A stretch of DNA of 64,000 nt from Escherichia coli. Its GTDB lineage: Bacteria > Pseudomonadota > Gammaproteobacteria > Enterobacterales > Enterobacteriaceae. The first letter of the stretch is position 1; each line of letters starts with the position of its first letter. A program made the position numbers. This document shows, in pieces, positions 39,001 to 42,000 of the stretch. The stretch is taken from assembly GCF_001677475.2 (NCBI RefSeq), contig NZ_CP012498.1; one strand, written 5' to 3'.

Positions 39001-42000
39001 GTGGCTCTGGTACTGATGGTGCTGGACCATGCAAACCGCATTCTGCATCTGGATCAGACGTGGATGTTTCTGGCCGGGCGGGGCGCGTTTCCGCTGTTTG
39101 CCCTGGTGTGGGGGGGGAATCTGTCCCGTCATGCGCATATCCGGCAGTCGGCCATTAACCGGCTGTGGGGATGGGCTGTGATTGCCCAGTTCGCGTATTA
39201 CGTTGCCGGCTTTCCCTGGTATGAAGGGAATATCCTGTTTGCCTTTGCGGTTGCGGCACAGATGCTGACGTGGTGTGAAACGCGCAGTTGGTGGCGTTTG
39301 GTGGGGGTCATATTGCTGCTGGCAGCGTGGCTGCCTTTGTCTGGCACCAGTTACGGCATTGCCGGGCTACTAATGCTGGCGGTCAGCCACAGGCTGTACA
39401 GGGAGAAAGACAGAACGGAACGTCTGGCGCTGGTTGCCTGCCTGCTGGCCGTGATTCCTGCGCTTAACCTCGCCACCAGTGATGCGGCGGCTGTAGCTGG
39501 CCTTGTGATGACGGTGCTGACCGTTGGTCTGGTGTCGTGTGCAGGGAAATCACTACCCCGTTTCTGGCCCGGGGATTTTTTCCCGATTTTCTATGCCTGT
39601 CATCTGGCTGTGCTGGGCGTTCTGGCACTGTGACGGGTGTGGTATCTTTGACTGTAACAGGATTATTCGTCAGAGGCAGAACACAGCATGACAGAGCAGA
39701 AGCGACCGGTACTGACACTGAAGCGGAAAACGGAAGGAGAGACGCCTGTCCGCAGCCGGAAAACCATCATCAATGTCACCACGCCACCAAAATGGAAGGT
39801 GAAAAAGCAGAAGCTGGCCGAGAAAGCGGCCCGGGAAGCAGAGCTGGCGGCAAAAAAAGCGCAGGCCAGGCAGGCGCTGTCCATTTATCTGACTCTGCCT
39901 TCACTGGATGAGGCCGTGAACACCCTGAAGCCCTGGTGGCCGGGATTATTTGACGGTGACACACCCCGGCTTCTGGCCTGCGGTATCCGTGACGTGTTAC
40001 TGGAAGACGTGGTGCAGCGGAATATCCCGCTCTCGCATAAAAAACTGCGCAGGGCGCTGAAGGCCATTACCCGTTCAGAAAGCTATCTGTGTGCCATGAA
40101 AGCCGGTGCCTGCCGGTATGACACGGAAGGGTATGTGACGGAGCATATTTCTCAGGAGGAGGAAGCGTATGCGGCAGCGCGTCTGGATAAAATCCGCCGC
40201 CAGAACCGGATAAAGGCAGAACTTCAGGCCGTGCTTGATGAGAAATAAAAAAAAGCCTCCATCAGAGAGAGGAGGCAGGGAAATAAGGCTTAAAAGGAAA
40301 TAACTTCCGTACCCGAAAGGAAGCCAGTCCACTGAATTATTTACCACAATAATACTGACGACTGAAAGGGAGGGACAGAAAAATGAATGGATTCAGAAAC
40401 AGTTCACGGAACGCTCAGGTCTGGCGCTGGCAGCGTGCCGGCGGGCTGCCTGCATAGCTCCCCGGACAGACTGGCAGCAGTTTGCCCGGAAAAGGGCTGA
40501 ACACTGCCACCGGCGCTGCCGGGGAAGGGTGTAACGAAAAAAGCAGCCTTCATTACTCCAGGAGTCAGAAGGCTGAATAATGCATGAGATTTACTTTTTT
40601 AATCTCCGGTCGGGCAGTATGACCGGACAATTCTGAGTAGCACAGAGTTTTTTCCGTATTAAGTCGTGATTTTATATTTTGTGATTTATTTCACAAAATA
40701 AGGTGTTATTCAATGTGTGCTGCAATATTCAGGATGTCTGAAATAAAGGAGCCATTTATTTGATATGGAGAATAATATGAGGAAATATATTCCACTGGTA
40801 TTATTTATCTTTTCATGGCCGGTATTGTCTGCAGATATTCATGGACGGGGTGTTCGTGTACTGGATGGTGATACCATCGAGGTAATGGACTTACTGAAGG
40901 CGGTGCGGATCAGGCTGGTAAATATTGATGCACCGGAAAAGAAACAGGATTATGGCCGCTGGTCGACAGACATGATGAAATCACTGGTTACAGGAAAAAC
41001 GGTTACCGTCACATATTTTCAGAGAGATCGTTATGGTCGTATTCTCGGGCAGGTTTATGCACCAGACGGAATGAATGTTAATCAGTTCATGGTCCGGGCC
41101 GGGGCTGCATGGGTATATGAGCAGTACAACACAGCTCCCGTGCTGCCTGTCCTTCAGAACGAAGCCAGACAACAAAAACGTGGGATCTGGCCAGATGCTG
41201 ATCCGGTTCCACCCTGGATATGGAGATACCGTAAATAAAGCGATGGCAATCTTATCATTCATCTGTTCTCAGCGGGAATCAAAATGGCGAAAACAAAACA
41301 GGAATGGCTGTATCAGTTACGGCGATGTTCATCAGTCAATATGCTGGAAAAAATTATTCATAAAAACAGAGACAGCTTATCGGGCAGTGAACGTGAATCA
41401 TTTAATTCAGCAGCAGACCACCGGTTAGCGGAATTAATCACCGGAAAGTTATATGACGGGATACCAAAAGAGATATGGAAATATGTAAGGTAATAATTCA
41501 GCATAGTTAATCACCAGGAGCAGATAAATAATGAAGCTGATTATTTTTATTCTTATTGTTCTGATTATTGCAGCGTTACTTATCCGGATTATCCTCAGAA
41601 GTGTAAATCAGCATTCTCCCTTGCTGATGCAATTGCATGCGGCAGGTATACGGACCGGTGATGCAGAGCGAATACTGTCCAGCGGTGAATACTGGCAACG
41701 TCAGAAGACGCTTCTGACAGAAAGGGAAGTCAGTTTTATGAAAGGACTGTTCAGAATTGTGGATATGAAGCGGTGGTATCTGTGTCCGCAGGTACGGGTT
41801 GCGGATATCGTCCAGCTGAACGGGAATATCCGCCACGATCCCGTCCGTGGTGGCAGTTATTCAGGATGGTGTCTCAGTGGCATGTTGATGTGGTTATCGT
41901 TGAGCGGCATTCGTTCAGTATTGTTGCAGCAGTAGAGCTGGATGATGCCAGCCATTTACGACCGGAACGCAGACGCCGGGATATTCTTCTGGAAGAGGTT

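Follow-up and report, generated by a model that had tools for sequence, protein, structure and literature searches.

The intergenic region upstream of a nuclease gene on an F-like (IncF) conjugative plasmid of the R100 type contains a perfect palindrome that is very probably a genuine site to which the cAMP receptor protein of the host, in complex with cAMP (CRP-cAMP), binds with high affinity, and not a site for a plasmid repressor. In the window, by which we mean the whole 64,000-nucleotide stretch of plasmid DNA analysed here, the repeat finder places this inverted repeat at 40675-40700, with arms TATTTTGTGA (40675-40684) and TCACAAAATA (40691-40700) of 10+10 bp on either side of a 6-bp spacer, TTTATT. 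The initial annotation had described an 8-bp inverted repeat with a 6-bp spacer (ttttgtga-tttatt-tcacaaaa), which is indeed exact at 40677-40698, the true perfect arms being longer, at 10 nt. These 22 bp (40677-40698, centre 40687.5) lie inside the inverted repeat TATTTTGTGA-tttatt-TCACAAAATA and make up the CRP site, assigned to neither strand, with TGTGA (40680-40684) as its left half-site and TCACA (40691-40695) as its right half-site. The end of the palindrome is 66 nt from the first in-frame ATG of the nuclease gene (40765) and 78 nt from the ATG that is likely to be the true start (40777), in agreement with the distance of about 70 bp upstream of the thermonuclease start given originally.

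The tra genes are found upstream on the + strand, and the order of the genes that follow is traX (38896-39633, + strand), finO (39688-40248, + strand; Pfam FinO_N and ProQ, FinO being an RNA chaperone), a remnant of an ANR-family small regulator gene (40383-40534, + strand), the palindrome, a nuclease gene of the SNase family (40777-41238, + strand), an rmoA-like hha gene encoding a co-modulator of H-NS (41284-41493, + strand; Pfam PF05321) and a DUF2726 gene (41531-42120, + strand). In most relatives the ANR-family gene between finO and the palindrome encodes 70 aa; here it has suffered a 61-bp internal deletion and a frameshift, as seen from the alignment to a pO157-like plasmid, from tblastn and from the annotation. 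The DUF2726 gene is also frameshifted, at about 41833, and tblastn with the p666 protein splits it into two frames. The nuclease is a thermonuclease of the secreted staphylococcal-nuclease family (153 aa; Pfam PF00565, E=5e-30; 'thermonuclease family protein' in homologs), the N-terminus of which resembles a signal peptide. Two in-frame ATGs, at 40765 and 40777, could initiate it, and a GGAG Shine-Dalgarno sequence (40767-40770) precedes the second, which is likely to be the true start and gives the 153-aa CDS found in the annotation of homologous plasmids. The terminator scan called no + strand terminator between 41200 and 42774, so that the nuclease, hha and DUF2726 genes are probably co-transcribed as one unit. 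Upstream of the palindrome, the RNA fold predicts a weak hairpin (AATTCTG/CAGAGTT followed by T6; 40629-40653, + strand), in which the 2 G-C pairs are too few for the terminator scan to call it; this hairpin may end transcription of the ANR gene, in which case the palindrome would belong to a separate downstream promoter region. This segment is widespread: more than 5000 plasmid records match it, mostly from Escherichia, Klebsiella, Shigella and Salmonella, and the 151-bp promoter region is present in 2908 of 5426 complete E. coli genomes, making it a backbone segment carried by about half of them.

The sequence TGTGA-N6-TCACA is the consensus core for CRP, and canonical E. coli CRP sites (lac, galP1, mtlA and others) conform to the consensus AAATGTGATCTAGATCACATTT. 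An exact core occupies positions 40680-40695, within the 10+10 inverted repeat, so that the site has full two-fold symmetry. Like the canonical sites, it combines a perfect symmetric TGTGA-N6-TCACA with A/T-rich flanks; unlike their consensus, it has TTT/AAA rather than AAA/TTT as flanks and a T-rich spacer rather than TCTAGA. The exact core occurs once in the 64-kb window against 0.11 occurrences expected, and at least once in 11 of 100 shuffles. With a weight matrix built from 101 CRP sites identified by ChIP-seq on the chromosome of ETEC H10407 (Haycocks et al., PMC4287617), the palindrome scores 15.6 bits, which is the best match in the window and exceeds 80% of the 101 training sites, placing it in the upper fifth of in vivo-occupied sites. 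Around 15% of random 64-kb sequences reach the same 15.6 bits. Taken by themselves, these sequence statistics make a weak case for the significance of the palindrome and are not convincing; that it is more than a chance match follows from its conservation and from the binding data published for its ortholog.

This ortholog is located on the ETEC plasmid p666. S1 Table of Haycocks et al. (2015) lists 'ttttgtgaaattaatcacaaaa', with a score of 13.78, the target ETEC_p666_0090 and the entry 'yes' for binding in vitro; it is the top-scoring CRP prediction on both large plasmids of ETEC H10407, and CRP bound it in an electrophoretic mobility shift assay (EMSA) (PMC4287617). The gel shift that the initial annotation had put forward as an informative check has thus already been published for the p666 ortholog, and is positive for CRP (PMC4287617). 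We rebuilt the 103-bp EMSA fragment from the overlapping primers '13.73 For/Rev' (TTTTGTGATTAATTTCACAAAATAAGG...GGAGAATAACATG; PMC4287617) and found it by BLAST to be 100% identical to positions 4183-4285 of p666 (NC_017722.1), its end being the ATG of a thermonuclease family gene. The rebuilt fragment is collinear with positions 40677-40779 of the window. Both sites hold an orthologous position in the same finO-nuclease-hha backbone, have identical arms (TTTTGTGA/TCACAAAA) and are collinear as far as the nuclease ATG; within the 22-bp site a single spacer base differs (TTTATT here, TTAATT in p666), and the weight matrix scores the variant of the window (15.6 bits) slightly above the EMSA-positive one (14.6 bits). 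The p666 locus differs in having a PIN-domain gene and a second, degenerate copy of the module inserted upstream and in having an intact ANR gene, and the binding that was demonstrated is that of the TTAATT spacer variant. The second copy, upstream of the inserted PIN-domain gene, has TCATA in place of TCACA and scores 9.7 bits; it was EMSA-negative for CRP (PMC4287617), which is consistent with CRP specificity. The main text of the same paper (PMC4287617) contains no discussion of the nuclease site. What was initially an observation on sequence alone can be traced to an element of a familiar kind, for which the binding protein can be named. With its ortholog previously predicted and shown to bind CRP, the element belongs to a site class that is already known, and is real but ordinary; on our assessment, what is established so far is limited to the in vitro binding of CRP by the p666 ortholog.

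The palindrome had also been described as operator-like and as a target for plasmid regulators. The gel shift of the ortholog bears out that it is a palindrome bound by protein and situated in the upstream regulatory region of the nuclease gene; to call it an operator, if a repressor site is meant, is not yet warranted, and CRP is usually an activator. The proposal of a plasmid regulator as the binder fares less well, the published binder of the ortholog being host CRP and the neighbouring genes encoding no sequence-specific DNA-binding repressor. An operator for a plasmid-encoded repressor would be in keeping with a perfect palindrome in a promoter region and with the small regulator genes (ANR-family and hha) on its flanks, but the palindrome is intact here although the ANR gene is broken, and its sequence is explained by the exact CRP consensus match together with the published CRP binding. 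Furthermore, FinO, the ANR remnant, the SNase-family nuclease, Hha and DUF2726 all lack a helix-turn-helix repressor domain. ANR proteins exert their effect by binding AraC-family activators, and Hha does so by way of H-NS; sequence-specific DNA binding is a property of neither. As no sequence-specific DNA-binding regulator is encoded nearby, we regard a plasmid-encoded repressor as very improbable.

To assess conservation, we brought together 13 R100-type sequences of the region, their sources being plasmids of E. coli, Shigella and Klebsiella, plus one chromosomal integrant. Variable columns make up 1 of 20 in the arms as against 52 of 157 in the flanks and spacer (Fisher p=0.008), a test that is not phylogenetically independent because the sequences compared are closely related (90-99% identity). 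The left half-site is invariant in the 13 sequences, and the lone arm variant, an A to G change that turns TCACA into TCACG, occurs in a sequence (L011) that has lost the nuclease start region. Three of the six spacer positions are variable, and arms that are kept while the spacer varies are the pattern expected of a dimer contacting two half-sites. In a more diverged F-like lineage (nuclease about 80% identical), TATTTTGT and TCACAA persist as islands of identity, with a left half-site of TGTCG or TGTTG that leaves a degenerate site of 3-8 bits. For nuclease homologs on IncI1 (L006), IncX5 (L007) and MOBC (L005) plasmids, the upstream CRP-like sites found with the weight matrix all score 7.3 bits or less; with no comparable site on these plasmids, CRP control does not extend to plasmid SNase genes in general.

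Binding in vitro does not by itself imply function, and the site could be silent, a neutral or decoy sequence in H-NS-coated AT-rich DNA that has been kept by recent common ancestry. In ETEC cells grown to mid-log in M9 fructose, the CRP ChIP-seq signal was confined to the chromosome, and all five plasmid sites that CRP bound tightly in vitro were without CRP occupancy and were bound by H-NS (PMC4287617). The region studied here has the A+T-rich character of H-NS-silenced DNA, GC content falling to a trough of 31-33% over 40620-40800 compared with about 47% in the window and 0.5-0.6 in finO. The lack of an in vivo CRP ChIP signal at the ortholog speaks against a functional CRP site, as do its non-canonical spacing to the best -10 candidate (see below), the degenerate state of the site in the F-like lineage and its absence from the IncI1, IncX5 and MOBC plasmids. 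A silent site would also accommodate the finding that roughly 15% of random 64-kb sequences offer a match of this quality, and the close relationship of the plasmids compared, from which the conservation test derives its lack of phylogenetic independence. On the other side, variation in the arm columns is significantly lower than in the flanks and spacer, and TATTTTGT and TCACAA are still islands of identity in the much more diverged F-like lineage. The ETEC estA2 and estA1 promoters provide a further point of comparison, as their CRP sites are likewise plasmid-borne in AT-rich DNA; CRP binds them in vitro, and in the cell they are masked by H-NS (PMC4287617). The estA2 transcription start has been mapped, its promoter being a class I CRP-dependent one with 3-fold activation by CRP, and this H-NS-masked plasmid site is CRP-responsive once H-NS is removed (PMC4287617). 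A functionally silent site consequently appears rather unlikely to us. The nuclease site differs from that of estA2 in that its geometry does not correspond clearly to either class I or class II.

The inverted repeat might instead work at the RNA level, as a terminator or a structure in the 5'-UTR. A 10-bp stem does appear in the predicted RNA fold of 40530-40780, and the arm variants TCACG (L011) and TCATA (PIN-gene copy) would still allow G-U pairing on the + strand. The stem is A/U-rich, is followed by AAGG instead of a U-run and was not called by the terminator scan, and hence does not have the features of an intrinsic terminator. No known transcript covers the palindrome, and the F-like lineage (TGTCG/TCACA) has lost the pairing. 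On all these grounds we rejected an RNA hairpin, the chances of which we consider minimal.

Relative to the transcription start, the canonical centres of activating CRP sites are close to -41.5 in class II and to -61.5, -71.5, -82.5 or -92.5 in class I. The promoter scan called nothing of the sigma-70 type on the + strand ahead of the nuclease gene, and a search of the literature for the nuclease promoter, rmoA and transcription start maps of pO157 or IncF plasmids returned nothing usable, nor did the literature searched yield data on a response of this promoter to crp or cAMP. As read from the sequence, the best candidate for the nuclease promoter is the extended -10 element TGcAATATT (40721-40729, + strand), with a predicted start at about 40735-40737; CRP would then be centred at about -48.5, outside the canonical positions for activation. 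A2 and T6 of this element are kept in all sequences but one (L009), and in the paralogous p666 copy, ahead of the PIN gene, AATATT likewise stands 25 nt from the palindrome. A weak alternative, TGAAAT (40739-40744, + strand), is without a good -35; transcription from it would start at about 40750, with CRP at about -62.5 in a class I-like arrangement, and CTGAAATA is conserved among the R100-type sequences. No -10 element compatible with CRP at -41.5 (class II) was found in the sequence. On balance, regulation of the nuclease-hha operon by the palindrome has about an even chance of being correct.

Transcription in the opposite direction must also be considered. A full-length match (1-185; 183.8 bits) to the antisense RNA AS-pc02 (Rfam RF02876), known from the IncFII plasmid pHK01, is found on the minus strand, from 40613 to 40431, where it occupies the same intergenic module, directly to the left of the palindrome. 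The two do not overlap, and a regulatory link between them is conjecture. The only promoter called by the scan is a minus-strand sigma-70-like match, TTGTGA-16-TAAAAT (40696 to 40669), located inside the palindrome. The CRP site could therefore mainly serve the opposite strand, either as an upstream activator site or as a -35-overlapping repressor site of a leftward AS-pc02 promoter over the ANR gene; the symmetry of the site makes this compatible with the explanation that we prefer, binding by host CRP. Such a function would agree with the retention of an intact palindrome in plasmids in which the nuclease is a pseudogene (L009, L015 and L017) and with the conservation of 40537-40700 (the 5' part of the antisense RNA, a GC hairpin, GTATTAAG and the palindrome) as a block ahead of different genes. 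The geometry is less favourable: the palindrome centre lies 74.5 bp from the annotated 5' end of AS-pc02, on the opposite strand, and both this position (-74.5) and the one relative to the start of the scanned promoter (-25.5) are non-canonical for CRP activation. Neither the PIN-gene copy nor the F-like lineage, moreover, conserves the TAAAAT -10. A CRP site devoted mainly to the leftward strand is thus unlikely, if not negligibly so, and the same holds for its having any role for the leftward transcript.

These observations suggest how binding by host CRP might operate in the cell. A CRP dimer can bind the palindrome, as shown in vitro for the p666 ortholog, and H-NS, probably together with Hha, would normally coat the region, H-NS coverage without detectable CRP in growing cells having been shown for the same ortholog. 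When silencing is relieved and cAMP is high, CRP could change transcription of the nuclease-hha operon, of the divergent AS-pc02, or of both, and such control would couple plasmid backbone genes to the carbon status of the host. The operon carries a plasmid copy of hha, the product of which acts together with H-NS to modulate genes for conjugation and virulence; should CRP indeed control this operon, signals from the carbon source would reach both the silencing of the plasmid and the output of the secreted nuclease. A more ambitious proposal would make the palindrome the hub of a portable module (40537-40700) made up of AS-pc02, the GC hairpin with its compensatory changes, the GTATTAAG box and the CRP site, in which competition between CRP and H-NS/Hha sets expression in both directions. 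We consider it improbable; were it true, the dose of plasmid Hha and the secreted nuclease would be tied to host cAMP, with feedback on the H-NS silencing of the backbone.

Finally, the palindrome had been reported to be preceded by a direct repeat of GTGATTT. Both copies are present according to the repeat finder, one upstream (40666-40672, + strand) and the second overlapping the palindrome (40681-40687). The upstream copy is not conserved, being altered in 6 of the 13 related sequences (L009, L010, L011, L015, L016 and L018), and the direct repeat is for this reason probably coincidental and was dropped as a feature.

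The promoter module that carries the CRP-site palindrome is present twice on p666 (NC_017722.1), the plasmid of ETEC strain H10407, at positions 1968-1989 and 3501-3522 of the p666 sequence L008, and appears to have been duplicated at the time of the insertion of a PIN-domain gene. The copy upstream of the nuclease gene has the half-site TCACA and was positive in gel shifts (EMSA) with CRP; the copy upstream of the inserted PIN-domain gene has TCATA and was EMSA-negative (Haycocks et al., PMC4287617).

To the left of the palindrome, a GC-rich hairpin (TCCGGTCGGG...GACCGGA) lies at 40605-40627 in the window, at 1318-1340 in the related sequence L003 and at about 1895-1917 in L008. 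It is retained with compensatory changes (CCGG/CCGG to CTGG/CCAG), found in the more divergent F-like lineage as well as in the p666 PIN-gene copy of the module, and this retention suggests a conserved RNA or DNA structure. Further left, a hairpin CAGCCTTC...GAAGGCTG (40537-40575) follows a run of A6 on the + strand; read on the - strand, it is a stem with U6 after it and so looks terminator-like for a leftward transcript. In sequence L004 one T-A pair of this second hairpin is replaced by C-G, a compensatory change. The block next to the hairpin, TCAGAAGGCTGAATAATGCATGAGA, does not vary, not even in the F-like lineage with its greater divergence.

AS-pc02 (antisense to pHK01_099; Rfam RF02876), a known IncFII plasmid antisense RNA, has a full-length match on the - strand at 40431-40613 (183.8 bits). 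Its annotated 5' end falls inside the GC-rich hairpin, the palindrome is directly to its right, and it overlies the remnant of an ANR-family small regulator gene (40383-40534, + strand) that has lost 61 bp internally and is frameshifted. In most relatives an ANR-family gene separates finO from the nuclease gene; in CP012495.1 it has the same deleted form as in the window.

Downstream of hha, the DUF2726 gene (41531-42120, + strand) is in two frames, split at about 41833, when compared with the intact 196-aa protein of p666, and it is therefore probably a pseudogene. The DUF2726 gene of pO157-like plasmids carries an internal deletion different from the change in the window. A sok antitoxin RNA (Rfam RF01794, 81 bits; 42597-42757, + strand) lies downstream of the nuclease-hha-DUF2726 operon and before the RepFII replicon (RepA, 43725-44594), as does a Hok/SrnB-type toxin ORF (42745-42894, + strand).

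Within the tra region, a short gap between genes contains GGTTCTGATTAATTTCACAAAA (21539-21560), which has a stretch of 16 bases (GATTAATTTCACAAAA) in common with the CRP site of the p666 type; 0.02 such matches would be expected by chance. The second-best match to the CRP matrix in the window (14.5 bits), TGTGACCTGCGTAACA (54086-54101), precedes the start of tssC (VipB) by about 100 bp and is probably within the type VI secretion gene before it, or at that gene's end. The type VI secretion cluster of the plasmid occupies about 53000-64000 of the window and includes VipB/TssC (54196-55674), TssF (56616-58418), TssG (58382-59341), a VgrG-like gene (59354-61336) and ImpA/TssA (62127-63203). Plasmids of 215-225 kb from Escherichia sp. 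of cattle and human sources are the closest to this one, at 97% identity.
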